Source: Eledone cirrhosa
Taxonomy: Eukaryota
DNA: 64,000 nt
Direction: 5' to 3'
NCBI GenBank assembly: GCA_964016885.1
Contig: OZ024755.1
Location: 20,150,001-20,214,000 of the forward strand
How positions within the stretch are numbered: position 1 is the stretch's first letter; each line of letters starts with the position of its first letter. The notes beneath the pieces are model-generated. The model was given only the letters and a program-made list of their open reading frames with translations. It did no database searches and had not been told where the DNA came from. Of this stretch, positions 776-59,164 are shown one piece after another. Made by a program: the position numbers and the translations under genes.

Positions 776-1430
776 TCTCTTATGAACTATCTTACTAAAC
801 ATAATCTATTATATAAGTATGTACACGTACATACATATATGTATACAGACGTACAGTAGTATGTATATATATATGTACGTATGGATTCACCGAACATTTA
901 TTATAATGCTCGGTGTGTTTGTAAACAAACATCCCGTATTAAGCCGTAGTGTCCAGCAACCATCGTTGCTCGTTTGTTCAACACTGACAAAAGGAACGCT
1001 GTACTAGTTTCAAGCTTATTAGCTATCGTCAGCAACGTATACCTTCCTGCCAGATTGTTGCACGTATATACTTACCTTATGCATATTAACGGCTGAGTAG
1101 CCCAATTTGCATATCGAGTGGGTTAATCGGCCGGGTGCACCGAAAACGATAAACGGAAAAAATGAAACGAAATTTCATTTCCCACTCTTAGTACGGCTGT
1201 TACTTAAATATAAGTATGTATACGTACATACATATATGTATACATAATCTATTAATTTGACTGATATCATCGAATTACTTCACTATTCCATATTAACAAT
1301 GGACGTACTTAAAAAGAATTACGTATATGTGACAGTAACTAATAGATTCGGTTCAGTATATTATATTGTATGTTCAAATACCAGTTTTGTCGATGATATT
1401 CTTACACCCATGGTTCTTTGAATAAGAAAC

Positions 1431-2766: not shown

Positions 2767-2798
<32 letters not shown>

Positions 2799-2801
<3 letters not shown>

Positions 2802-3016
2802 GAATGAGTAGGACCCCGACGGCTGAGCTCAAGCCGTTTCGACGGCTAATTCTGGACTAAATTTAGTCTGATTTTAGTCCAGAATTAGCCGTCGAAACGG
2901 CTTGAGCTCAGCAGTCGGGGTCCTACTCGTTCCTATTACCCACACTACTACCCTAAAGTATTTAGTACTTTGGTGCGTTATGGTCCACCTGGTTCCTTAC
3001 CACATTTCCTTCGTTA
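2799..3016 (+). mobile_element. Family C element
   Basis: Longest inverted arms of the family (about 2799-2860 vs 2875-2936) plus tail; left end in (TA)n. Confidence 0.8.
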
Positions 3017-4973: not shown

Positions 4974-4976
<3 letters not shown>

Positions 4977-5086
4977 CGAAGGGGTTGTGGTAAGGAAGCA
5001 GATGGACCATAACGCACCAGAGTACTCAATACTCCAGAAATAGCCGTCGAAACGGCTTGAGCTCTGTCGTTGGGGTCATACTTTTT

Positions 5087-5090
<4 letters not shown>
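4974..5090 (-). mobile_element. Family C element (tail on minus strand, hammerhead-half arm on plus)
   Basis: Reverse complement of the tail at 4974-5031 joined to CCAGAAATAGCCGTCGAAACGGCTTGAGCTC...TTCCTA; flanked by (TA)n. Confidence 0.75.
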
Positions 5091-5129
<39 letters not shown>

Positions 5130-6156: not shown

Positions 6157-6262
6157 AAAAATGTAGCAGATATTCATTTGCATAAACAGGATCCAGCATC
6201 TGCATAGACTCTATGCAAATGCTGGATCCTATTTATGCAAATGAATATCTGGCTACATTTTT
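6157..6262. repeat. Near-perfect ~52-bp-arm palindrome (foldback/MITE-like)
   Basis: AAAAATGTAGCAGATATTCATTTGCATAAACAGGATCCAGCATCTGCATAGA followed by its reverse complement, with a 1-nt loop. Confidence 0.85.
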
Positions 6263-16498: not shown

Positions 16499-17543
16499 AT
16501 TGGATAGTGTCGGTAAAGCGTGGAACATGCTTTGTGACATAGAGTTACGGCCCTTTACGTCCTCGCCAAGGTTAGCTTAGCCTTTCATCCTTACAAGGTC
16601 AATAAAATAAAGTGCTAATAATGCATTGGAGTCAATATAATCGACTTTCCCCTTCCCACAAATTGTTGACCTTGTGTCTCAATCAGAAACCATTATTATA
16701 ATGAAAGCAGGGTGGTGGATTGGCAGTATCGGTAGAGGGTCGGACGCCATGCTTTGATGCATAGAGTTACGGCCCTTTCCAATCTGAGTTCAAATCCCGC
16801 CGAGGTTAACTTTGCCTTTCATCCTTACGGGGGTCGATAAAATAAAATACCAGTAATACACTGGGTAATTGCTGGCCTTGTGCCAAATGTAGAAACAATT
16901 ATTATAATGAAAGCAGCGGTGGATTGGCAGTATCAGTAGAGCGTCGAACAACATGCTTTGCAGCATAGAGTTACGGCCCTTTACGGTTTCAGTTCAGGTT
17001 AACTTTGCCTTTCATCCTTAGGGGGTTGATAAAATAAAGTACCAGTAATGCACTGGGATAATCCTGGTCTTCTACCAAAAGTAGAAACAATTATTGTGAT
17101 TTCTTATATAGGCACAATGCTAGCAATTTTTTTTTTTGGGGGGGGGGGGTCGATTAAATCGACCGCAGTGCGTACTTTATTTTATCAACCCCCTAAGGGT
17201 GAAAGGCAAAGTTACCCTCAGCGGGATTTGAACTCAGACCATAAAGGGCCGTAACTCTATGCTGACAAAGCATGACGTCCGATCCTCTACCGATACTGCC
17301 AATCCACCGCCCTAGTAGACAATTATTATAACGAAAGCAATCATAATTACATCTTATTAGTCAGCAATCTACAGCCATTCTGTAAGAGCTTACGGTCCTT
17401 TACTTCTGAGTTCAAATCCCGCTTTGCCTTTCATCATTACGGAATCGATAAAATAAAGCACCAGTAAGTAATGGGATCGATTTAATCGATTTCCCTCTCT
17501 ATTTTAAATTGCTGGCCTTGTAGTCTAAAGTAGAAACAATGAT
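16499..17543. mobile_element. Cluster of five family A SINEs (+16499-16700, +16710-16905, +16915-17094, -17091-17311, +17359-17543)
   Basis: Each copy carries the family core and tail; ATTATTATAATGAAAGCAG is repeated at the junctions. Confidence 0.9.
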
Positions 17544-18888: not shown

Positions 18889-19198
18889 AAGACATAATTA
18901 TTCCAAAGTTACTCACAACAACCCATCCTCTACAATATTTACAGAAGTGTTTTCACATAAGTTAGTTCAAGTGAAGCAGCATCTGGCTTTAATTATACCA
19001 GTATGTTTCTGAGATATTAGTAAATATATAACTTTATATCCCGTCATCATATTATTTAGTAAGCTTCATTAGCTAGATATATTCACGATACATTCATCCA
19101 TTCTCGTCACGGAGGATACACTCTTGTCTCTGTAAACCAAGGAACCAGATATTCAAATTAATTTCGCAATTTAATATGTCTTTCTATCGACTTCGAAT

Positions 19199-20300
19199 GA
19201 TACCACTCTTCTCACAACAGAATACACAATATGTCTTTTTATCACATCCAGTGATACCACTTTTCTCCCGACACAATACATAACATATCTTTCTACCACA
19301 TCCACTGATACCACACTTCTCATGACAATACATAACATATCCTTCTACCACTTACAAGGATACCACTCTTCTCACGACATAATATATAGCATATCCTTCT
19401 ACCACTTGCAATGATACCACACTTCTCACGACATAATACATAGCATATCCTTCTACCACTTACAATGATACCACTCTTCTCACGACATAATACATAGCAT
19501 ATCTTTCTACCACTTGCAATGATACCACTCTTCTTCTCACCACATAATACATAACATATCTTTCTACCACATCCACTGATACTACACTTCTCACGACATA
19601 ATACATAGCATATCCTTCTACCACTTACAATGATACCACTCTTCTCACGACATAATATATAGCATATCCTTCTACCACTTACAATGATACCACACTTCTC
19701 ACGACATAATACATAGCATATCCTTCTACCACTTGCAATGATACCACACTTCTAACGACATAATATATAGCATATCATTCTACCACTTGCAATGATACCA
19801 CTCTTCTCACGACATAATACATAGCATATCCTTCTACCACTTACAATGATACCACTCTTCTCACGACATAATATATAGCATATCCTTCTACCACTTACAA
19901 TGATACCACACTTCTCACGACATAATACATAGCATATCCTTCTACCACTTGCAATGATACCAGACTTCTAACGACATAATATATAGCATATCATTCTACC
20001 ACTTGCAATGATACCACTCTTCTCACGACATAATACATAGCATATCCTTCTACCACTTACAATGATACCACTCTTCTCACGACATAATATATAGCATATC
20101 CTTCTACCACTTGCAATGATACCACACTTCTAACGACATAATATATAGCATATCCTTCTACCACTTGCAATGATACCACTCTTCTCACGACATAATACAT
20201 AGCATATCCTTCTACCACTTACAAGGATACCACTCTTCTCACGACATAATATATAGCATATCCTTCTACCATTTGCAATGATACCACTCTTCTCACGACA
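19199..20300. repeat. 54-bp minisatellite, about 20 copies
   Basis: Unit TGATACCACTCTTCTCACGACATAATACATAGCATATCCTTCTACCACTTGCAA; period confirmed at 19631/19685. Confidence 0.97.
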
Positions 20301-21007
20301 GTATACAAACCCACTAGTACGATAATACTGACAACACTCTACTGCATTTATAATTAGTTAACAGTAAAGACATAATGTTCTAATAATATACTAATTAAAA
20401 TCAAAATCAAACAATGGATATAGCTAGCCAATATCCCATCCTTTATTTGTTCCCAATAGTCAGTCAGCCATACTGGGTCAGAGAATGTTCCAATGATGTT
20501 ATGATTAAAATCAAAATCAGACAATGGATAGAGATACCGTCATAAGCCATCGTTTAGTTGTTCCTAATATTCAATCAGTCAGTCAGTCAGTGATATTGTG
20601 TAGGAGATGCAACAGCAATCAATGCTGAATGGGTAGAGATGAAAACTGGATGTTTCATTTGTCGGACATTTACAGCACAGAGTAAACGACAGATACAATC
20701 AATAAATTTATTTGTGCAGCTTTATAGATAATAATGCTGCTCCTGAAACGAAACGGTCATGTGTTTGTCCCATCTCTGGGGAGTATCATATGAAATTACG
20801 TTCAGTGTGTAGAAGGATTTATATAAAATGATGAACTGAAATTGTTTTTAAATAACATATTCGTAAACTAATCCCACTTCTGAACAACTAACTGAGAAAT
20901 GAAAAGAATTGATAAGTTATCATTATTGGAAGATTACATATACAACTTTAGAATTAGTCGAAACCTACAGAAGAATTATCTGGGAGATATTTATATACTT
21001 ATATCAT

Positions 21008-21950: not shown

Positions 21951-22335
21951 TAGTATTTTGAAAGAGCTAGCAGAGCATAGCTCCTGGCGATGTTAATTAT
22001 CAATTTGTTAAGATGCAGGGTTTGAGTGAGTGTCATTGGCTCTATGCCCAACCAAGTTAGAACACTACCTTCCAACATCAATCATATACTCACTTTACAT
22101 TCACACGATTGCACAAACACACACACACTGCCACACAGACACAAATTCACACACAGACACACACAGACACACGTTCACACATATTCACAAGTACGCATAC
22201 TTAGTTACATATAAAATGGCATGTGTTTTAATGTTTAGAAGTGTATATGTACATATATATATATATATATATATGTGTTGATTTAAAACTTCACTATTCA
22301 CAAGTGTTTTTTAAGCTTCATATCATGTATCCCTA

Positions 22336-22402
22336 TTTTATCTGATGAAAACGCAGCTATCATCCCGTGATGATATTTGTTTTTGAAATGCGAATAATAA
22401 AA
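22336..22402 (+). ncRNA. Degenerate type-I hammerhead motif followed by AATAAA
   Basis: CTGATGA at 22342-22348, a long stem II (AAAC..TATCATC/GATGATA..TTTT) and GAAA at 22385. Stem III is decayed (GAAATGCGA vs GAAACGCGTH). Confidence 0.4.
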
Positions 22403-22440
22403 TACTTGGAACTCTTTTAACCATCTTTTGATCTTGTATT

Positions 22441-22445
22441 AGAGA

Positions 22446-22476
<31 letters not shown>

Positions 22477-22580
22477 CGGGGAGAGAGAGAGAGAGAGAGC
22501 GGGGAGAGAGAGAGCGAGAGGGGGAGGGAGAGAGAGAGCGAGAGGGGGAGGGAGAGAGAGAGCGAGAGGGGGAGAGAGAG
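22441..22580. repeat. (GA)n-rich polypurine tract
   Basis: Seen directly. Confidence 0.9.
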
Positions 22581-22587
22581 AAATAAA

Positions 22588-22690
22588 ACTGTTTTATTCG
22601 GGAGAAATCATCAGGAAATCATATTTATACTCTACTATGTATTGAGTACCTTGCTTACTGTGGTTAGCCCCGATTGAACCCGGGATAAAC
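22588..22690. mobile_element. Family D fragment (inverted hammerhead part plus forward tail)
   Basis: The reverse complement of 22588-22615 is CCTGATGATTTCTCCCGAATAAAACAGT; 22626-22690 matches the family D tail. Confidence 0.7.
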
Positions 22691-22736
22691 TTTGCGTACG
22701 TGCGTGCGTGCGCGTGTGCGTGTGTGTGTGTGTATT

Positions 22737-22771
<35 letters not shown>

Positions 22772-22803
22772 CACTTTGCATATTTAATCCAACGAGGAAA
22801 CTT

Positions 22804-22857
<54 letters not shown>

Positions 22858-23702
22858 ACCCACAAAACATGAAAACAAAATCTTACAATTAAAATTTATT
22901 GATAATTGTTACCAAGACAAAGAGAGATAAATCCGAAATCAAAGCGGCTCCATGTGGAATTAACATATAGAGATGGAAACAAATTTCGTCTTTGACAGGC
23001 ACGGAGACAACTCTGCTGTTGCTTCGGTTTTATTAGACAAATCATGGAATTACAAGTAGCTAGCAGAGCGCAGATGGATGTGAGAACATATATAGATATT
23101 CGTATTGAAAACATTCAATGATTAACTAATTATTGCATGTTTATTTATTGTGGCACCGGAACTAATGACGACATCTTGAATCTTGAAAATCTAATGAGAT
23201 CTCAATACAAGATATGGTCTCCGTTTAAAACAACACGAATCATCCGATGAATAAAGGAAAGAGTAATTGCAGTAAAACCAGACTGAGGTTTTGAAAGGGG
23301 CGAGTATATGCGAGAGACTGAGACAGAATGGTTGGGTCTAGAAAGTGGCAAAAGTGGGGGTAACGGGCGTAGGGTTGCTAGAAATAGTAATGGAAAGGTT
23401 ACAATAAAGGGAGTTATATATTTATAGATGTTAATAAAGATAGGCGATGGTGGCGAGAAAGAGGACTGGATATTGATAAGAACACCTGAATGAAGAGGGG
23501 TTGTTACTGGTAGGGGTGGAAGGGTGATAATAGAGATCATACTGTGTCAATGGATTCGATTGACTACCTGAAGCATCGTGATGCAAGAGAGAAGTAGAGT
23601 GGCAGGAAGAAAGAATGGAGGTATACAGGCAGACCTAAAGAAACCTCTAGGTAGAAAGGTGATATCGTAGAGTGTAAGAAATGTGACTGGCAGAGATTCC
23701 TG

Positions 23703-23759
<57 letters not shown>

Positions 23760-23763
<4 letters not shown>

Positions 23764-23881
23764 GATGATTTCTCACGAATGAAACAGTTCTAGTCCTGTA
23801 GAAGCTCTTCTATATTAAAACTTTCATACTCTGCTATGTATTAAGTACCTTACTGTGATTACCTCCGATTCAACCCGGAAT

Positions 23882-23885
<4 letters not shown>
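23760..23885 (+). mobile_element. Family D element with hammerhead core
   Basis: CTGATGA 23762-23768, GAAA 23781-23784, stem III ACAG/CTGT, GTA 23798-23800, then tail; between (TA)n and (CT)n. Confidence 0.8.
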
Positions 23886-23946
<61 letters not shown>

Positions 23947-24113
23947 CGTGTAGGTAGTACGGTGAAATACTGGTATTGGTACCAAAGCAAGCACTCAATG
24001 CACAGGCAGAGTGTATATAACAGAAAAAAACGAGGAACTTTCGTTTACATATGAAAAGTATTTATTGCAATAAATATTTTTTCATATGTAAACGAAACTT
24101 CCTCGTTTTTTCT
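23947..24113 (-). mobile_element. Family G: 92-bp palindrome plus asymmetric tail
   Basis: Palindrome at 24022-24113 centred on TGCA. The reverse complement of the tail contains ACTCTGCCTGTGCATTGAGTGC. Flanked by TA. Confidence 0.7.
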
Positions 24114-24127
24114 AATATATATATATA

Positions 24128-24370
24128 TTGATGTGAGCAATGTTTATGGGGGTTATCAAGTATATATATATATATATATATTGTCTGATGAGGACGTACT
24201 GTTGTACCTCTGAAATATGTATAATAAAATTTAATTGATCAAAAGAACATCTATTTTATTAATATTTGTATTTTAATATTTTAATAACTCTGGAAAATTA
24301 TAACTGTAGAGTGCTTCCAATCTACTGTAAAACTCATTCTTTGATGTACTCATTGAATCTTGTTTAACTC

Positions 24371-24412
<42 letters not shown>

Positions 24413-24442
24413 TTGATAACCCCCGTAAACATTGCTCACAAC

Positions 24443-24444
<2 letters not shown>
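24128..24444. repeat. ~34-bp inverted repeats enclosing a segment with a degenerate hammerhead motif
   Basis: TTGATGTGAGCAATGTTTATGGGGGTTATCAAGTA (24128-24162) vs TACTTGATAACCCCCGTAAACATTGCTCACAACAA (24410-24444). Inside is CTGATGAGGACGTACTGTTGTACCTCTGAAATATGTA, then AATAAA. Confidence 0.7.
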
Positions 24445-24482
<38 letters not shown>

Positions 24483-24838
24483 CATGTGTTTATATCATAT
24501 ACGTACGTACGTACATACATAGAAAAAGCTGGCACGTGTCAATTAAGACCTTTAAAGCCATGGTTTACGACATCTTGTCCCTTCTTGATACCCAGACCTG
24601 TACCTGCTTCTAACAACACCCTAGGTTATAATGTACTTGTTTTAAAATGGCGATATAACATAATATTTATTACATCCCATACGGTTATGCCTGCATGGGT
24701 TGAGTGGGTCAGCCACACATTAGTTACTCCTTTGTATTGTTATATGTTGGAATGTTCAATCACATTAATAATTGAATTTAAGTATCTATCAACATGCACA
24801 TGCCAGCAACCTACTAACTGCTCCATTTATCTATACTA

Positions 24839-25127
24839 AATAATGGTTTCTTATGTAGGCACAAGGCCAGCAATTTTGGGGGGAGGGGAAAAGTAGATGA
24901 AATCTACTCCAGTGCGTGACTGGTACTTTATTTTATCCACCCCGTAAGGATGAAAGGCAAAGTTAACCTCGGCGGGATTTGAACTCAGATCATAAAGAGC
25001 TGTAACTCTATGCGGGAGAGCATGGCGTCCGACCCTCTATTATACTGCTAATCCACCGCCCTATCTATACTAAATAATTGTTTCTACTTTTGGCACAAGG
25101 CCAGCAATTACCCAGTGCATTACTGGG
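24839..25127 (-). mobile_element. Family A SINE long variant (24839-25060, 17-bp TSD) plus tail fragment of a second copy (25073-25127)
   Basis: TATCTATACTAAATAAT at 24828-24844 and 25062-25078. Confidence 0.9.
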
Positions 25128-25269
25128 AAAGCTATGAGGGAGCCTCTGTGGATTCATCCTACATGCAAAAAGTAGAAGCCTGATTTCGCTCAAATCCGCT
25201 TAAAAAAAGGTAGAAGTCTAAAGAAATAATATATTCTGGGATTGGATATATTTTACATGAACAAACAGA

Positions 25270-25447
25270 TAGAATGGTTGAAGATAGTTCTTCTTTATTA
25301 GGGGTAGACTTTAGAATTTCTGAGTTAAATTTTCCTTTCATCCTTACTAGGTCGAAAAATTAAAGTGCCAGTAACCCACTATTGTCGATTTGATCAACTT
25401 TCCCCTCAACTAAGATTGTTGACCTTGTGCATAAATCAGAAACTATC
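25270..25447 (+). mobile_element. Degenerate family A SINE
   Basis: CTGAGTTAAAT..CCTTTCATCCTTAC..GTCGA..CCTTGTGCATAAATCAGAAAC. Confidence 0.7.
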
Positions 25448-26174
25448 ATAGGTAAACTTAACCACGACGTTTCTGGGGCAAAATAAAAACTACAACTATA
25501 AAAACAACTGTAAATAGTCTAATAATTGGTTTGCTAGGAATTGAATTAGTTTTACATCTATTATGCCTCTCCCAATCTCTGTTTCTCTCCTATCTCTCTT
25601 TCTCTTTACAAATGTGCGTGCGTTATAGTATGTGTGTGTGTATACACCCCCCCCCCCCACACACACACTGGTTTTAACACAGTTTCATTATCTGGGGTTG
25701 GAACTTGACACATTTAAAGAAAAATGCACTTGTTTACAGGATGACATTGATATAAGGCAGCAAGCTTTGACCAATCATTGGACAGTCTCAGCAGTGTTTG
25801 TTGCATTATTTACACCAAAGCTTCTCCTACTCCAGATTCTTAACTTCTGCCCCACCCCCACCATTTCATTCATATTTCTCTCACCTTAATGTTCACTAAC
25901 ATAGCTCCATATATAAACATCTTTATATAACTGTAATTAATGTACAAAATATCATGATTTCACCTGTAAATATTTACATCACATCTTTACTTTCTACTAA
26001 TTTAATAAGTTCATGAGTTTCTTCATATATTGTATAACACACATACCATAAAACATGCTTTCCATTACTTTTCATTCGTTTCGTTTTAGTTATCTATTAG
26101 CCAAACATTATAGAGGGATATCTAGATTTAATTCTAGACTCATATGAACTTTTAATGATTGAATTACGAGAAAT

Positions 26175-26473
26175 AATAATGGTTTCTGATTTAGGTAGAA
26201 GGCAAACGATTTTTTGCGGAAGGAGACATTCGAGAGAGGAAAGTTGATTAAAACTACCCTAGTGCGTTACTGGTACTTTAAGTTGTCGACCCCGTAAGGA
26301 TGAAAGACAAAGTCAACCTCGGCGGGATTTGAACTCAGATCGTAAATGGTTTCTAATTAAGGCACAAGGCCAACAATTTTGGGGAGGAGAGGAATGCCGA
26401 TTAAATCGACTCCAGTACATAACTGGTACTTTATTTTATCGACCCCTGCAAGGATATATTTGAGCTCAGAACG
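26175..26473 (-). mobile_element. Two truncated family A SINEs (long variant) in tandem
   Basis: Tail and core at 26175-26346 and 26346-26473. Confidence 0.8.
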
Positions 26474-26976
26474 TAATAATAAAGTGACAGTTGTGAATTG
26501 CATCTATTTCATAGAAAAAAAACATAATAAAAAAAAAAATAAAAAACATAATAAAAAAATAATAACCATTCCTTATATTATATGCATTTATATCATATCT
26601 ATTTACATACATACATATTACATAGAACATGCGGTGACAGGGTAAGCTAAAGCCTAAGAGATAAGGGGTTCTCTATTTCCCTATATTACAGCGAGGAAAA
26701 TCAATATAGTTTGATGATGAACATTCTAGTATAAAATATTTTTTTATATATTTTGGGAAAGATAAGAAGAATAAAGTAAATAGAAATGAAAATTGAAAGT
26801 GAAAGTAGAAAGTGGAAAATATAAACCTTTGACATATTTCTATTTAGTAACAATCTTAATCAATGCAATGAAATAGTTGCATGAAAACTTAAAATTATTG
26901 CTTTCAGTTGCGCAAATAAATGTGTGTGTATATATGTGTGTGTGTGTATGTACATATAAATATATATATATATATT

Positions 26977-27097
26977 TTTTATTATTGGTCTATTATGCAA
27001 ATTAGTGGGGGTTTTTTCCCTATTCCAACGGCTTAATTTAAATGTACGGGATTTAAACCTCTCCAACACTAATTTGCATAATAGACCAATAATAAAA
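26977..27097. mobile_element. Short TIR element with perfect 31-bp inverted repeats in TA tracts
   Basis: TTTTATTATTGGTCTATTATGCAAATTAGTG (26977-27007) and its reverse complement (27067-27097). Confidence 0.75.
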
Positions 27098-27098
27098 T

Positions 27099-27131
<33 letters not shown>

Positions 27132-27134
<3 letters not shown>

Positions 27135-27265
27135 CGAAGGAAATGTGGTAAGGAACCAGGTGGACCATAACGCACCAAAGTACTCAATACTTAGGGTAGT
27201 AGAGTGGGTAATAGGAACAAGTAAGACCCCGACGGCTGAGCTCAGCCGTCGGGGTCTTACCTGTT

Positions 27266-27269
<4 letters not shown>
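27132..27269 (-). mobile_element. Family C element
   Basis: Tail and long arm on minus; folds back exactly at the GGCTGAGCTCAGCC palindrome; flanked by (TA)n. Confidence 0.8.
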
Positions 27270-27310
<41 letters not shown>

Positions 27311-28037
27311 AATATTTAAAGAAATATATTAATAAAGCAAGGGAATCATAATGAAAGGTAAATCAATTAAAAAAAAAAAAAAAAAAAAAAAATGCAACTA
27401 AAAGAAATATTACCAAGCATGTAGTATTCATAAGGTGAACTCGTAAGAAATCCATATGTAATCTGTTGTGAGTAGCTCCATGTGAGAGAGGAGAAAAATC
27501 AACATGTATTGTCGGGAAAAGCTGTGGTTGTTTATTGACAGTAGAAAAGTAGGAAGCTAACATAGCAACATGAAATTATTCACATAATCATAGCAGTAAG
27601 CAGTTGTGAACATTTCAGCTCGGTGTTGAACAGTAAAAACTATTAGATTTTTGCCAACCGAGAAAATACTTTTGAAGAAGAATGCATATAGTAAAAGAGA
27701 GTTGATGTAAAATAAGCTAATACATTTTCAAGCTTGATGCATTAGAGTAAAAATGAATATGAGTATGAAACACTCAGCAGCAGAATCAGCAGCAAAAGCA
27801 GCAGCAGCAGCAGCAGTAACAGCAGCAGAAAGTAAACAACAGCGGCAAAAGAAACAACAGTAGCCGTAACTACAACACTAACAACAATAGTAAAGCGCGG
27901 GAGCCTCTACATGGTCATTTTGCTTGTTGGAAATAGCAGTGACATTAGGAGAGAAGTAAGGAGTCGAGGATATACTCGTAACAAAATGTCAGAGCGGTTA
28001 TATATATATATATATAGGTATACTCGGTCAGATTTAT

Positions 28038-28233
28038 AATAATTGTTTCTACTTTTGGCACAAGGCCAGCAATTATCTCAGTGCATTACTGGTACTTTAT
28101 TTAATCGACCCCCCCCCCCCCCGTAAGGATGAAAGGCAAAGTTAACATCGGCAGGATTTGAACTCAGATCATAAAGGGACGTAGCCCTCTGCCGCAAAGC
28201 ATGACGTCTGACGCTCTACCGACTCTGCCAATC
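28038..28233 (-). mobile_element. SINE family A
   Basis: Consensus match with an internal poly-C expansion. Confidence 0.88.
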
Positions 28234-28334
28234 AGATTTATTATAATTAATTTTTACTACATTTAAAAAAAGAAAAATGATGTCCACTTTAGTGACCAGA
28301 GTAAGTTGTAAAAACAATGTTAGATGAGAAATAT

Positions 28335-28700
28335 TTGCAGCATCTGCAGCAGTAACATCAGCACTAACAGCAGCAGCACTAACAGCAGCAGCAAAAAAAA
28401 AAAAATACAAGTCCATAACCACAACCACCAACACAATAATAATAACAACAACAACAACACTATCAAAAAACAATACCGTCGCCGCCCATCACAACAGAAA
28501 CAACCGTAAAAGTATGAACAATGTCACCGTTAAAACCATTACCAACACTACCACCACCGCTAGCAACATCATCAACAACAACAACAACACCTGTAAAAGT
28601 ATCAACAACAACATCAACACCATCACAACTACCAACAACAGCTATAAACGTATAAGCAACAGCATCACCACCATCACTGTTAGCACCTACAACAAGAAAG
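28335..28700. repeat. Degenerate (CAG)/(CAA)/(CAC) trinucleotide field
   Basis: Seen directly; a similar (CAG)n run lies at 27775-27890. Confidence 0.85.
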
Positions 28701-28923
28701 ATTGCAGAAAAATATTTTTAAAATGTGTTGAAAAGTTTTTTTAATTCGTGTATAATACCTTATTTTGTAGGATTATTTAAAACAAATGAGTAAAGAAAAT
28801 ATATGTAAAATAATCACACACGAACACACAAACGTACATATATATATATACAAATACACATCTGTGTATGTGTTTATATATATAGAGAGAATGATAGGAG
28901 TATATATGTATTTATATTTCATT

Positions 28924-28959
<36 letters not shown>

Positions 28960-28963
<4 letters not shown>

Positions 28964-29148
28964 AACCAGTAAGACCCCGACGGCTGAGCTCAAGCCGTTT
29001 CGACGGCTAATTCAGAATTAGCCGTCGAAACGGCTTGAGCTCAGCCGTCGGGGTCCTACTCGTTCCTATCACCCACTCTACTACCCTAAGTATTGAGTAC
29101 TTTGGTGCGTTATGGTCCACCTGGTTCCTCACCACATTTCCTTCGTTA
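28960..29148 (+). mobile_element. Family C element
   Basis: Inverted arm 28960-29013, then forward arm and tail; flanked by (TA)n. Confidence 0.82.
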
Positions 29149-29271
29149 TATATATATATATATATAAAATATAAATATATATATATTTCTATCATTCTCT
29201 CTTTCCCTATCTGTATGTATACATAACGTATTTATATATATAAAATATAAATACATATATACTTCTCTCTC

Positions 29272-29311
<40 letters not shown>

Positions 29312-29389
29312 TTATTTATCAAGAGGGGTGCCCTAGCATTGCCTCAACCGGATGGCTGGAACAGGTAAAAGGGTAAAAAGTATATATAT

Positions 29390-29495
29390 AAGAGACCTAT
29401 AAATACCATACTTATTTTTTGATACCCAGATTCCTAATGATTTCTAAAGAATGAAACAGTTCTAGTCCTGTAGTATCTCATCTATATTAAAACGT
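29390..29495 (+). mobile_element. Family D element with mutated hammerhead core
   Basis: GATTC-CTAATGA(29434)-TTTCTAAAGAAT-GAAACAGTTCTAGTCCTGTA. Confidence 0.7.
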
Positions 29496-29515
29496 GTATA
29501 TATATATATATATAT

Positions 29516-29790
29516 AAAAGATGAAATCGAAAATGCAACTGGAGTCTTTTTAAAAAAAAAAATATTTATTTGGTTCCGTGACCGGTTTCGCAGTTCTTGT
29601 GCTTTTCAAAAGTAGAATTGAGATGGAGGGTCTGTGGTTCCTCCATCTCAACTCTACTTTTGAAAAGCACAAGAGCTGCTAAACCGGTAAAGGAACCAAA
29701 TAAATATATTTTTTATTTAAAAAAGACTCCAGTTGCATTTTCGATTTCATCTTTTTTCCTTATACTTTCACTCGTGTAGGACACCCAGTT
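29516..29790. mobile_element. Family E: ~115-bp-arm foldback with Penelope-type GAAACCGGTC
   Basis: Arms at 29516-29629 and 29640-29755. The reverse complement of the left arm contains CGAAACCGGTC (29580-29590) followed by AATAAA. Short one-sided tail. Confidence 0.75.
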
Positions 29791-29828
29791 TTTTTTTTCA
29801 TTTTGTAAAAAAACCTTACTTTCTAATA

Positions 29829-29864
<36 letters not shown>

Positions 29865-30059
29865 ATTTTGTATATATATATATATATATATACAAAATTA
29901 AGATAATCAAAATTATGGGTGTCATGCCAAAAAGACATGCGCCATATCACCCGCAAAATAAGCTCTCAGATTCTAACGAATTGGTCCGAACATTTTATAA
30001 TAACTAGAAATTGATTAATCAATTTTATAATAACTAGAAATTGTTAATCAATTTCTAGT

Positions 30060-30124
<65 letters not shown>

Positions 30125-30586
30125 AGTAGGCGTGCATGTCTCTGTGTGTGCACATGTGTATCTATGTATGTATATAAACACACACACACACACACACACT
30201 GCCCACATTATTTATATGTTACAATCTATATTTCAGCATGTTTATGTCTCGGGAACGTCTCTCGCAATGTACTGAGTTATACAAACTTATATATATGCTT
30301 GTGTGTGTGTGTAGGTGTGTATACACACGACCGTGTCTATATATATGAGTGTGTGTACATCCGACTATATGTGTATATATATATATATGGGGGGGGGGTT
30401 ATATATTCATGTTTAAATATGAAAACAACTGGATAAAAACGAGAAACTAAAATATTTATATATATATATATATACACATATACACCATTCATTTACATGT
30501 ATGTATTATCTATCTATCCATGTTTATAACCATCTCTGTATATATATATATATATATACACACTCACAGACACACAGCAGATATAG

Positions 30587-30701
30587 TCTGAGTTCAAATC
30601 CCGCCGAGGTTAACTTTGCATTTCATCCTTACGAGGTCGATTAAAATAAAGTACCCGTAATGTACTGGGATAATTGCTGGTATTGTGCCAAAAGTAGAAA
30701 C
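30587..30701 (+). mobile_element. 5'-truncated SINE family A
   Basis: Starts at the B box CTGAGTTCAAATCCCGCC. Confidence 0.85.
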
Positions 30702-30732
30702 GTGGATGAGTGTGTATGTATGTTCATGTGTG

Positions 30733-30780
<48 letters not shown>

Positions 30781-30809
30781 TACATACATACACACACATA
30801 CACATATAT

Positions 30810-31010
30810 TTTTAAATATAGATGAAATTCTACAGGACTAGAACGGTTTCATTCTTGAGAAATCATCAGGAATCAGGATTCCTGATGATTTCTCAAGAAT
30901 GAAACAGTTCTAGTCCTGTAGAATCTCATCTAAATTAAAACTTGTATACTCTACTATGTATTGAGTACCTTACTTACTGTGGTGACCTCCGATTCAACCC
31001 GGAATAACTT
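30810..31010 (+). mobile_element. Family D element: inverted arms (30810-30874 / 30877-30940) plus 70-nt tail
   Basis: The arms are reverse complements with few mismatches, and each contains a hammerhead motif. Confidence 0.85.
30877..30925 (+). ncRNA. Putative type-I hammerhead ribozyme
   Basis: Stem I GATTC/GAATC; CTGATGA 30882-30888; short stem II TTC-TCAA-GAA with a U.U closing mismatch; GAAA 30901-30904; stem III ACAG/CTGT in near-palindromic ACAGTTCTAGTCCTGT; cleavage triplet GTA 30918-30920. Confidence 0.7.
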
Positions 31011-31011
31011 A

Positions 31012-31046
<35 letters not shown>

Positions 31047-31048
<2 letters not shown>

Positions 31049-31359
31049 TGGTGGCTGCCAACTCGTTTTCGAGAATGGCCACAACTTTATATCCATGTAG
31101 GAGAATCCCTACCGATGTGCTGAACGAGTGTGATCCTTTAGTCCAGCCAGCTACTTGAAAACTGGTACAAACACTACACTTGTGACAATAATTGACACAT
31201 AGTGCTGGGCCCATGGTACCATGTGACGACAAGTGCAGAGAGATCTCCAGATATAAAGCAATGCCTGTGCCGTGAAGCTTTTATAGTGAGCAAAGGCACT
31301 GCACAAAGCCAGTCCCACTCTCTTAACCAAGATGATATTGACTTGTTCTTCTTTTTGGT

Positions 31360-31361
<2 letters not shown>
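31047..31361 (-). mobile_element. RTE-derived non-autonomous element (family R) with a short 5' inversion
   Basis: Highly similar to 41871-42180 and 53590-53900; the last ~24 nt are inverted relative to 42158-42181. Confidence 0.8.
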
Positions 31362-31399
<38 letters not shown>

Positions 31400-31633
31400 C
31401 ACATACAGAAACGCGCGGACATACCCCAGTATGGCCTCAGCTCCTCGGCTGTAACATGTAATTGAGTAAACACAGTAGAGTCAGAGAAAGGGTGTATGAT
31501 ATGAGAATACGTGCATTTCTTGTGAGTCCGAGGGTATGCCTGATTAAGTTAATTATATATTAAATGACAAAGGTCATAGGGTTACAGAGTAGGCATGCCT
31601 TGGTTATCATAGATCACTTCACTATATTTACTG

Positions 31634-32770
<1,137 letters not shown>

Positions 32771-41870: not shown

Positions 41871-42319
41871 GGGGGCTGCCAACTCGTTTTCGAGTACGGC
41901 CACTACTTTATATGTAGGAGAACCCCTACTGATGCGCTAAACGAGTGTGACTGTTTAGTCCAACCAGCGACTTGAAAACTCTGGTACAAACACTACACTT
42001 GTGACAATTATTGACACAGTGCTGGGCCCATGGTACCATGTGACGACAAGTGAAGAGGGATCTCCAGATATAAATCAATGCCTGTGCTGTGAAGCTTTTA
42101 TAGTGAGCAAAGGCACTGCACAAAGTCAGTCTCACTCTCTTAACCGAGATGATATTTACCAAAAAAGAAGAACAAGTCAACATCATTGGATACCATCAGG
42201 GTTGCAGGTGTTATATCAGAGGTTTCCTTCTAGAATTCTGCCTTGACAAAGGATAAGGGGTCATCTCTCCCGGTGATTTTGGATGGCCATTGACTCTTAA
42301 GAACTCCTTTGCCTTTGAC
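41871..42319 (-). mobile_element. RTE-derived non-autonomous element (family R), longest copy
   Basis: The minus strand encodes [22 protein letters not shown], a C2H2 finger of the type ending many RTE ORFs, joined to a non-coding 5' part with no RT sequence between. Confidence 0.8.
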
Positions 42320-45624: not shown

Positions 45625-45664
<40 letters not shown>

Positions 45665-45668
<4 letters not shown>

Positions 45669-45836
45669 AACGAGTAGGACCCCCACGGCTGAGCTCAAGC
45701 CGTTTCGACGGCTAATTCTGGACTAAACGGCTTGAGATCAGCTACTCGTTCCTATTACCCATTCTACTACGCTAAGTATTGAGTACTTTGGTGCGTTATG
45801 GTCCATCTGGTTCCGTACCACATTTATAGATCGTTA
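45665..45836 (+). mobile_element. Family C element, internally deleted
   Basis: Inverted arm 45665-45726, then a shortened forward arm and tail; flanked by (TA)n. Confidence 0.78.
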
Positions 45837-45929
45837 TATATATATATATATATTTAGTTATGTAATAAACAGAATTACTTCATTTACACACATATATATA
45901 TTGTGGTTACCCCGATTGAACCCGGAATA

Positions 45930-46010
<81 letters not shown>

Positions 46011-46012
<2 letters not shown>

Positions 46013-46444
46013 AGACGTAAGATAAGAAAATTATAAAATTAACTTACTTACTAAAATATCACTTCCAACTAATTAGTTTCTGGAATGGAGTAGATACATC
46101 TTCCGAAGAAGGTGTAGAGAAACATCCCGTCATCAGGAAAGTCAATTCTCATATAAGTTTCCAGGCAAAGCGAGGACACTGGAAGCTTATTAAAAAATAA
46201 ATCAGTGAATAGGAAATAGCAAAGCGTGGACTTACTTCCTAGCCATTGAGAAAATCACTGCCTCTGTGTCTGTGGCAAATTCAAAAAGAATCGAACACGT
46301 GTATCTACTCCATTCCAGAAACTAATTAGTTGGAAGTGATATTTTAGTAAGTAAGTTAATTTTATAATTTTCTTATTTTACGTCTCTTATATTATTGTTC
46401 TGCAACCCCATGCATTGAACCACAATGTTATTAAGACAAAACCT
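46011..46444. mobile_element. Family H: 88-bp inverted repeats (46011-46098 / 46300-46387) plus tail
   Basis: Near-perfect arms; the left end abuts a long (TA)n; the tail contains TTCTGCAACCCCATGCATTGAAC. Confidence 0.85.
46063..46140 (-). ncRNA. Putative type-I hammerhead ribozyme
   Basis: Reverse complement: TTTC-CTGATGA-C-GGGATG...CATTCC-A-GAAAC-TAATTA-GTT-GGAA. Stem III is the perfect palindrome AACTAATTAGTT, the triplet is GTT, and stem I is TTTC/GGAA. Confidence 0.6.
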
Positions 46445-50242: not shown

Positions 50243-50373
50243 TAACGAAGGAAGTGTGGTAATGAACCAGGTGGACCATAACGAACCAGAGTACTCGATA
50301 CTATTATAATAGGAAAAGAGTCAGCTGTCGAAACGGCCGGAGCTCAGCCATCGGGGTCCTGACTCTTTTCCTA
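50243..50373 (-). mobile_element. Family C element, diverged
   Basis: Tail on minus plus forward arm GTCGAAACGGCCGGAGCTCAGCCATCGGGG...TTCCTA; flanked by TA. Confidence 0.75.
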
Positions 50374-50639
50374 TATATATAATAACTGTCTCTTCTTTTC
50401 AAAATAGGGCATATATACATACGAATATTATCGATACGATGTTAAATAGAGTTAAGTATATAAAAAAAAAAACGATGTGGATTCGAGATTCGAGTATTGG
50501 ATGCGACTAGATTAAGTGTTAATAATGTTAATAGCTAAGCGAAATATTGTATAACCTCAAGGTGTCGAGATATTTTCTTAAAGGGGATTTAGCATGTTGC
50601 GCAATTATAATAAATGTTAATTATAGGTTGAAGAAAAGC

Positions 50640-53589: not shown

Positions 53590-53900
53590 GGTGGCTGCCA
53601 ACTCGTTTTCGAGTACGGCCACTACTTTATATCTATGTAGGAGAACCCCTACCGATGCGCTGAACGAGTGTGACCCTTTAGACAAGCCAGCGACTTGAAA
53701 ACTCTGGTACAAATACTACACTTGTGACAATATTGACACATAGTGCTGGGCCCATGGTACCATGTGATGACAAGTGCAGAGAGATCTCCAGATATAAAGC
53801 AATGCCTGTGCCGTGAAGCTTTTATAGTGAGCAAAGGCACTGCACAAAGCCAGTCCCACTCTCTTAACCAGGATGATATTTACCAAAAAGAAAACCAAGT
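53590..53900 (-). mobile_element. RTE-derived non-autonomous element (family R)
   Basis: Encodes [22 protein letters not shown]; the 3' end runs into (GTAT)n. Confidence 0.8.
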
Positions 53901-55193
53901 CATACATACATTACACATTTCTGAGTACGTGCACATTTACATATGGCATTTAAAGAGAGAATAATAGCGTGAAAATATTGAACTACGTTATAGAGGTTGA
54001 ATGGAAATGTTCTGAGTTAGTGTATACAGGGTTCAAATAACACTTTTGACCTTCCCTGTTTTAGTACAGTTTCGTATTTATCGATTTCATGAATGTCGTC
54101 CACCATTACATTATTGTTCAATGTACACAGAATATCCATATCTCTTTCACAATCACATATATATATGACGCCTGTATAGACTCTTGTTAATATATCCATC
54201 GACAAACAGACTCAACTACAAATATATCTACATGCTTTCACGGAGACACATAAATGCACAAATAGGTAAGTACCTCTATATTTCAATAAATATATCTATA
54301 CATTACGATCAACATAAATTAATGTTGATTTAATTAGAGCATGCTCTAAAAGAAACTTATTGCTCATAGGAGGATAAAACTATGAATTTTCCACACCATA
54401 AATTAAGAAAAATTAGAGAAGCATTGTCGCAGTGATAGTATTTAGAACAGTGTAGAGCAGACAGTTACATTGAGAAAAATTGTATTTTTTGATATATTGT
54501 TTCAGTCAGTTCATTATATTCTAATTGAGATAGTCATGTTATTGATTGGATTAACAATTGTTTAAAGCTTGTTTGCAAGTGTAAACATGTCTTCTTTCAA
54601 CACTTACTGTGTGTTTGTTTTTTTTCCTTTTATTGTACACGACTAGCAGACGGAACACTACATAGAAAATGAAATATTGGAGCGATTTTCTCTTACCAAT
54701 ACCACGCCTAGGGATGCTGCACTACATGCAAATAATATTTTGTGAATTATTCTGTCTCACTGCTTACAACAATAAAATGTAATATTCGTTGCTGCCTTTT
54801 TACAGCTAGATAGATATGTATCAATTACAGACGAACAAATCTGCGCCATTTCGGGCGTTAAAGATATTAATTTTTCACCAAGTAAAACATAGATTGTCAA
54901 AGATGTTACTCTCCACTGCACTTACAGTTTTGTATATCAGTCTATCTTCCGTTTACTTGAAGATAAATGTTAAAAAACTTAGATAGGTTAGCTTAGTGTT
55001 AATAATAACTATTAAATACTTTTTCGTCGCTGGAAGAGCCCTCTTCAAAACATAAGAAATGAAGACATCCATCCAAGATGTTTCCTATTTCCCTTTCGTA
55101 TGACACCATAACATAATTCATCTCGACGTTTTAACCATTGTATGAAGGGGTCACTACTACTCTCATATATTCAGGACATTATATATGATAACA

Positions 55194-58611: not shown

Positions 58612-58664
58612 TCGTTTTTGTATTTTGTTTGCAAGATTTCCTATCTGAAATATATATATAGATA

Positions 58665-59025
58665 TGGCTAGTATACTTTTATTCTTTTTATTGATTTATA
58701 TTCACCATTCCTTCCGTAGGCAATATGTCCGTCACTCTGGTGGTTTTTGACCCCCTATAATTGAACACATATCTCTATGTGTACTTCTCTCTATATGTTG
58801 GTTTATAAAGAGCCCAGAATATATATTCCTTGAGCTCTCTAAATTATAGGGGAATAATTTGAGTTTTTAACTCCGTTTTTTAATCCCCTATAATTTAGAG
58901 AGCGAAGTACACACAGAGATATGTGTTCAATTATAGGGGATCAAAAACCACCAGAGTGACGAACATATTAGCTACGGAAGGAATGGTGAATATAAATCAA
59001 TAAAATAAATAAATTATACTAACCA
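58665..59025. mobile_element. Family F: ~130-bp inverted repeats with a nested 20-bp inverted repeat
   Basis: Arms at 58665-58793 and 58896-59025; inner GCTCTCTAAATTATAGGGGA (58834-58853) and its reverse complement (58884-58903); flanked by TA. Confidence 0.8.
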
Positions 59026-59164
59026 TATATATGTATATATATATATCCCTCGCCATGTCTGAACGACACCTGTTTCTAACAGAGAATGATAAAGTGTGAT
59101 AGAGAGAAAATATGAGAAAGAGATATTCAGGTAGAAACGAATCCAGTATTAGACTGGGATTGTT

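Follow-up and report, generated by a model that had tools for sequence, protein, structure and literature searches.

The mirror-image pair of hammerhead motifs at 30811-31013 is very probably the short end of a Penelope-like element (PLE) that was copied into a (TA)n site in both directions. The locus lies in a 64,000-nt window of the Eledone cirrhosa assembly GCA_964016885.1 (contig OZ024755.1, positions 20,150,001-20,214,000 of the forward strand), here referred to as the window, and belongs to a repeat family that we call family D. The head-to-head layout is already known for Penelope-like elements. Family D appears not to have been described before: titles and abstract openings of the literature on octopus hammerheads and Penelope palindromes contain no description of it, and family D words are absent from the supplement of PMC8557442 and from two of the three supplement files of PMC4209133.

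In the proposed mechanism, the element's endonuclease would nick the (TA)n tract, which is identical on both strands. Reverse transcription would start at two fixed sites about 65 nt apart, yielding one tailed and one tailless arm, and the two copies would grow towards each other until joined with two filler bases. Precedents for these steps are found in the accessible text of earlier reports. Penelope-like insertions have been described with an inverted 5′-truncated copy, a one-sided tail and (TA)n targets (PMC8557442), and head-to-head palindromes occur at pLTR junctions (PMC3846280). Opposite-strand pairs of minimal hammerheads have been on record since 2014 (PMC4209133). With purified PAc protein, both strands are cut and extended, two reverse transcription start sites bound the tail, and ribozyme cleavage requires the protein (PMC11167929). 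The locus is organized as follows:

30730-30810, no strand: left microsatellite flank, (TA)n/(CA)n
30811-30874, minus strand: inverted short arm of 64 nt, carrying the hammerhead 30826-30874 and terminating at the first 3′ end, adjoining TA/CA repeats
30875-30876, no strand: 2-nt junction, unlike the native upstream sequence of either arm (a T-rich tract ending GATACCCA)
30877-30925, plus strand: type I hammerhead, right copy, intact with all core residues; predicted cut after A30920
30926-30940, plus strand: spacer separating the ribozyme from the first 3′ end, which family reads place at about 30942
30941-31013, plus strand: tail of about 65-70 nt, optional and confined to the long arm; the second 3′ end lies at ~31007-31013
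31014-31046, no strand: right microsatellite flank, (TA)n

Hammerhead architecture and the U.U-closed stem II

Every element that a first-pass annotation had named in the right copy, namely a full core, a 5-bp stem I and a GUA site, was located at 30877-30925 on the plus strand. Stem I pairs GATTC (30877-30881) with GAATC (30921-30925), reaching 6 bp when the G30876-T30926 wobble is counted, and the core comprises CTGATGA (30882-30888), GAAA (30901-30904) and GTA (30918-30920). Stem II is a 3-bp TTC/GAA helix closed by T30889.T30900 (U10.1.U11.1), with loop II at 30893-30896, and stem III has 4 bp (30904-30907 with 30916-30919) and an 8-nt loop centred on CTAG. The residues C3-U4-G5-A6-N7-G8-A9, G12-A13-A14, A15.1-U16.1 and H17 are present in both arms (30882-30888, 30901-30904 and 30919-30920 in the right one). 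The three helices, open at stem I, measure 5-6, 3 and 4 bp in the right arm, and stem III is broken in the left. Stem-loop III (30904-30919, 16 nt) is near-palindromic: compared with its reverse complement, it mismatches at two pairs, the number given in the annotation.

The base pair usual at 10.1-11.1 (G-C) is replaced by U.U in five of five window copies: all core-pattern matches (22591, 23762, 29434, 30846 and 30882) have a T.T closure of stem II, and the mean expected by chance is 0.02. This closure had been regarded as a family trait, a view supported by these matches and by the fixation of U10.1 and U11.1 in the contigs described below. With a relaxed hammerhead descriptor, the window yields three sites and 200 shuffled versions yield 0.02 on average; none appeared in a set of 60 shuffles. 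The U.U mispair lowers the expected cleavage rate and leaves the hammerhead class possible, since it is a reported natural exception, the best tolerated mispair according to the accessible text of PMC3088659, and was found here in seven microbial hammerheads. An Rfam scan of the entire window returned zero matches at gathering score, and among the best 150 of 162 matches for 22000-32000 (E<=10) hammerhead families were absent and only generic hairpin families appeared. The Rfam models are insensitive to the U.U variant, as the microbial type III examples (L001-L006) were missed too.

These microbial examples came from a pattern of core plus stem II only, which recovered eight distinct viral or metagenome contig sequences, seven of them with full stems I and III:

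L001:6001-6024, L002:209-232, L003:6001-6024, L004:2711-2734, L006:350-373 and L011:151-174: type III hammerheads with U10.1.U11.1 and a UUC/GAA stem II
L014:151-175: type I hammerhead with U10.1.U11.1 and a UUC/GAA stem II

Among distinct matches with a 4-nt loop, 6 of 12 passed the hammerhead test versus 0.09 expected from shuffled flanks. Matches in prokaryote genomes were rejected as hammerheads (0 of 33 passed) and are treated as chance, as is L005. The U.U-closed stem II module is not peculiar to family D. The phage and metagenome hammerheads, together with the natural U10.1-U11.1 cases in the accessible text of PMC3088659, have the core and the UUC-loop-GAA stem II of family D; the phage and metagenome hammerheads are mostly type III with a 7-bp stem I and an NAAA loop II, suited to folding as a monomer, whereas the D hammerhead belongs to type I and its loop II varies. 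Exact family D words had no match in metagenome or viral contigs, and the relaxed core and stem II pattern found no animal relative. Several of the microbial U.U hammerheads have an apparent start codon shortly downstream.

The minimal hammerheads of metazoan PLEs, as presented in the accessible part of PMC4209133, resemble that of family D in being type I, in the CUGAUGA/GAAA core, in the 5-6-bp stem I, in the palindromic loop III and in their opposite-strand pairs. At 16 nt, stem III of D is longer, with two 2x2 internal loops when dimeric, and stem II of D has 3 bp with U.U instead of the 7-8 bp with G10.1-C11.1 of the described PLE ribozymes, a difference that speaks against the Penelope-like reading.

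Family D in the window and in sequencing runs

Public runs were aligned to 30875-31016: X1 (contigs) and X21 (12.47 million reads), which carry the same species label, as well as X5 and X20. Family D is represented by 8,011 contigs in X1 and by 6,420 of the 12.47 million reads in X21. No record on 30875-31016 came from X5 (another species) or X20 (RNA, another species), which is no proof of absence. In X1, whose contig depth is biased towards young subfamilies, 24 changes reach at least 2%. Seven of them fall in loop II, where all four positions (30893-30896) are variable, and only one of the 45 ribozyme positions outside loop II varies (p 2.4e-5). U10.1, U11.1, the core and the entire loop III are fixed in X1; in X21, G12A stands at 7.1% among the 40 of 87 variants listed. 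The first-pass annotation had proposed a variant hammerhead, to be abandoned if the core were no better conserved than the loops. The opposite pattern was found, the core is complete, and the proposal stands. This family conservation shows that the D hammerhead was under selection in its source elements.

The sole ribozyme change beyond loop II in X1 is T30924G, which accounts for 12% of X1 depth and 33% of X21 reads. It accompanies loose-end consensuses in which GGC ends before 30879 and GCC starts after 30923, and the combination would give a compensated 6-bp stem I, GGCTTC/GAAGCC, in unphased consensus ends. Stem I thus appears to covary, a partial answer to the covariation analysis suggested earlier: a compensated stem accompanies T30924G, and it is read from consensus loose ends of unphased copies. 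Covariation in stem I and a fixed loop III are as needed by a dimer.

Four further family D segments were found in the window, and each of the other hammerhead-bearing D copies has G5A, G12A or a cut stem I:

22584-22688, no strand: second inverted D locus; 22584-22617(-) corresponds to family positions 3-36, with G12 changed to A, and 22626-22688(+) to 69-131; arms non-overlapping
23758-23886, plus strand: single D copy that includes the tail; its core is intact and (TA)n truncates the 5′ strand of stem I; member of the GAAGC subfamily
29390-29497, plus strand: solo D copy without tail; native upstream sequence kept, core G5 changed to A
45899-45931, plus strand: tail-only D fragment between microsatellites

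In the native upstream sequence (29390-29429), a TATA-like word lies ~30 nt ahead of stem I, and a T-rich tract finishes with CAG at the stem I edge. The pyrimidine tract and AG at the 5′ edge of helix I may parallel the intron end of D. virilis Penelope. A total of 840 X21 reads run upstream of 30877 into a common T-rich native sequence, with a median loose length of 83. The idea that stem I marks the RNA 5′ end, with all copies starting there, was dropped because of these reads. The family D loose ends cover 30 upstream letters, and no RT or GIY-YIG ORF was linked to the family.

The window itself consists of animal DNA rich in AT and in microsatellites, and it lacks long non-repetitive ORFs. 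A SINE-like repeat about 190 nt long is abundant, with copies at 30587-30701 and many further sites and an inverted pair at 16916-17310. Its combination with (TA)n arrays is, we presume, reminiscent of octopus genomes. A tandem array with a period of about 54 nt occupies 19172-20307. At 990-1040(-), an unrelated single hammerhead likewise closes stem II with T.T and has a palindromic stem III with CTAG. A single hammerhead at 24185(+) lies in a segment (24129-24443) with (TA)n arrays and 32-nt inverted arms at its borders. Six other stretches (29516-29790, 58658-59032, 6157-6262, 24025-24111, 26977-27097 and 46011-46387) are long palindromes or have inverted arms, several of them beside (TA)n; these six are possibly stubs of other Penelope-like families. 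A three-copy repeat (31050-31342, 41871-42187 and 53590-53912; 90-94% alike), one copy of which adjoins the (TA)n flank at 31014-31046, is possibly a LINE 3′ end. Two of its copies weakly match a C2H2 zinc finger on the minus strand, with E-values of 3e-05 and 0.001 that fall short of the curated cut-off.

Insertion architecture and the Penelope-like interpretation

Family D reads have two 3′ ends about 65 nt apart, one near 30942 and one near 31007, and continue into (TA)n after either of them: 418 reads do so behind 30942, 449 behind 31007 and 418 behind 31008. At 30811-31013, the 3′ end of the left arm is the first of these ends and that of the right arm the second. (TA)n stands behind both 3′ ends in the reads and in the window, and a target duplication would be unreadable inside such a microsatellite. 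The hammerhead occupies a terminal-repeat position, as in Penelope-like elements, and the tail is optional and confined to one end.

The two arms form an inverted repeat of 64 nt each, separated by 2 nt and differing at 4 of 64 positions. The mirror copy annotated at 30826-30874(-) is present with its 2-nt spacer, and the mirror is imperfect: a change at 30845, private to the left arm, breaks stem III pair 15.3-16.3 and weakens the self-duplex of stem III (-3.8 instead of -12.8 kcal/mol), and another at 30826 produces a stem I wobble. Loop II is TCAA in both arms and in none of the three other window copies. The right arm has four private changes in about 135 nt (30933, 30944, 30953 and 30984); 89-99% of X21 reads differ from it at 30933, 30953 and 30984, as does 92% of X1 depth at 30944. 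Private mutations are building up in both arms, and the locus is decaying.

Inverted 5′-truncated copies and partial tandems recur across the family, with at least 12 kinds of opposite-strand joint and at least three kinds of go-back joint. Inversion may be the minority form genome-wide, because the 12 listed opposite-strand joints hold 140 of the 6,420 X21 reads; among window D loci bearing a hammerhead, two of four are inverted. Near-symmetric joints recur, 30879/30879 appearing in 7 contigs and in 40 reads from 2 starts. In six read joints, the inner end lies at 30879-30899 and the forward arm begins only at 30945-30955, so that the arms do not overlap; one locus of this kind, 22584-22688, is present in the window. 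In many of the listed joints, one arm begins beyond the ribozyme and has no ribozyme core.

A second (TA)n-flanked family has the same geometry:

2563-2758, 2798-3016, 4974-5091, 27132-27270, 28959-29148, 45664-45825 and 50243-50374: family C

All seven family C loci consist of an inverted short arm and a long arm with an 80-nt tail, and their junctions differ. This family keeps the 3′ half of a hammerhead (GAAAC, a palindromic stem III and GTC), with the junction inside the motif; the CTGAnGA core was seen upstream at none of the seven window loci. Families C and D have a tail word in common. Arms are non-overlapping at three window loci (22584-22688, 4974-5091 and 50243-50374). The tail is found on exactly one arm at all eight scorable loci, which would occur in 0.4% of cases if the ends were random, the loci being possibly non-independent. 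This count excludes 29516-29790, whose tail is unverifiable from one copy, and the 22584 locus, whose inverted arm is shortened. In a weak test of a shared template, no other long arm had fewer mismatches than that of the locus itself at three of five family C loci.

Taken together, the locus resembles the EN+ Penelope-like elements (Penelope/Poseidon, Neptune, Nematis and Hydra), as described in the accessible text of PMC3846280, PMC8557442 and PMC11167929, in its head-to-head copy and palindromic junction, its tail on one arm, its two 3′ ends, its (TA)n targets and its hammerhead near the 3′ end. It differs from them in its length of about 200 bp, in having no ORF seen and in its tail. The tail length (about 65-70 nt versus the 30-40 nt usually quoted) counts against the Penelope-like reading, as does a Pfam scan of 65 non-microsatellite ORFs among the 228 in the window, which found no RT or GIY-YIG domain. 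A six-frame translation of 22860-23710 gave nothing recognisable. The putative Penelope membership of family D rests on structure.

Alternative origins, dimerization and significance

We tentatively propose that the inverted insertions arise by twin priming, in which both fixed sites would be used on one sense RNA and a 77-78-nt tandem would supply a double hammerhead in cis, possibly as a very small retrozyme. One nicked strand of the self-complementary (TA)n would prime at the tail end and the other at the tail boundary; the first cDNA would either stall near the second primer, leaving non-overlapping arms, or pass it and produce a palindrome. The features that twin priming predicts were seen, namely a tail on exactly one arm at every scorable locus and stalled arms that begin immediately 3′ of the inner end. 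If true, it would remove the need for the antisense self-priming proposed earlier. Titles and abstract openings yielded no paper on twin priming in Penelope, which Arkhipova 2006 and Lunse 2017 may cover.

It is also conceivable, though short of probable, that the same element acquired its inverted arm through fold-back self-priming, or through later central deletion of a longer palindrome, and not through two primings. Self-priming is favoured by Arkhipova et al. 2013 in the accessible text of PMC3846280, and it suits the 30811-31013 locus, which is symmetric and has the otherwise absent TCAA loop in both arms; for symmetric loci of this kind, fold-back is possible. However, it requires the second arm to be contained in the first, and the arms do not overlap at the three window loci and in the six read joints described above, an arrangement that central deletion of a longer palindrome could mimic.

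The tandem invoked above is seen in reads whose head-to-tail joint leads from 30938 back to 30877 via 15-16 native upstream letters, forming a 77-78-nt hammerhead unit. This joint is covered by 70 X21 reads with 17 starts and several letter variants, the 150-nt reads being too short for array length. The three listed joints that return to 30877 (from 30931, 30938 and 30939) comprise 88 X21 reads. At 30811-31013 there are no two head-to-tail hammerhead units; the tandem joint lies elsewhere in family D. In the accessible text of PMC7229834 and bioRxiv 10.64898/2026.07.22.740005, animal non-LTR retrozymes consist of head-to-tail hammerhead units, like these D reads, and are tandem, whereas the D locus is inverted. 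Retrozyme consensus units of 51-972 bp are reported there (bioRxiv 10.64898/2026.07.22.740005) as PLE derivatives. The 77-78-nt tandem would be a natural setting for a double hammerhead and is a candidate mini-retrozyme.

This unit, and the size range of the PLE-derived retrozymes, would also suit a free-standing non-autonomous element, SINE-like or a mini-retrozyme, that uses PLE enzymes and whose palindrome would still be an integration product. We consider this rather unlikely as the nature of family D. No ORF is seen and four of five window arms begin at most 5 nt upstream of the core, as such an element would have it, but the 840 X21 reads that continue upstream of 30877 make the element longer than the stub.

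Folding predictions bear on how the ribozyme might act. As a monomer, the hammerhead fold (-3.8 kcal/mol) is not the minimum free energy structure (-7.2 kcal/mol), and neither is the two-strand double hammerhead (-17.6 versus -21.5 kcal/mol for the dimer minimum). Stem III is predicted to be far more stable as a self-duplex (-12.8 kcal/mol) than as a hairpin (-1.4 kcal/mol). The accessible text of PMC4209133 and of the review PMC6765202 describes slow, dimer-dependent cleavage for PLE hammerheads. Such behaviour fits family D, because its stem III is stabler as a self-duplex and its loop III is fixed, and the D hammerhead probably cleaves slowly, in a dimer held together by its near-palindromic stem III, when arranged in tandem or helped by protein. 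Dimer action, which the first-pass annotation had raised as a possibility, now seems probable. The pair at 30811-31013 is nevertheless unable to form a double hammerhead in cis, since any RNA through the locus carries one of the two in sense and the other in antisense.

The same annotation had suggested that read-through transcription would give a ~65-bp hairpin that could sequester the ribozyme. The read-through RNA is indeed predicted to form a 64-bp hairpin (-85 kcal/mol, z -16.3), which exceeds the forced hammerhead fold by 66 kcal/mol (-85.0 versus -18.9). Sequestration is real in silico and probably a by-product; selection for it is unsupported, because the junctions are scattered, the right arm has four private changes and stem III of the left arm has been hit. 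We accordingly regard it as very unlikely that the mirror pair is a selected regulatory device, either an antisense arm silencing the ribozyme or a bidirectional switch. The stability of the hairpin, the symmetric junction with both cores kept and the recurrence of symmetric joints would suit such a device. Against this, junctions are of at least 12 kinds, many with one arm starting past the ribozyme, the family C junctions fall within the motif, and both arms show private decay. The back-to-back layout, read before as something special, is a known Penelope signature. An assembly or library artefact, or a chance palindrome, is scarcely credible: fold-back chimeras arise in sequencing libraries and the exact locus has no demonstrated spanning record, but the arms differ from each other at 4 of 64 positions, each stops at one of the two 3′ ends specific to the family, and their flanks are dissimilar; seven other loci share the architecture, and the chance expectation of the motif is 0.02.

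As a ribozyme switch, the mirror pair has no importance; its layout is that of a known retroelement scar, which we read as a Penelope-like insertion. In family D, a U10.1-U11.1 hammerhead whose stem III is long and near-palindromic occurs naturally in high copy, and its stem II recurs in phage-type hammerheads; this provides a usable test set for the rescue of weak cores by dimer formation or protein. The regular geometry of short and long arms bears on how PLEs make inverted insertions. If transcribed, such palindromes would be a source of long double-stranded RNA.
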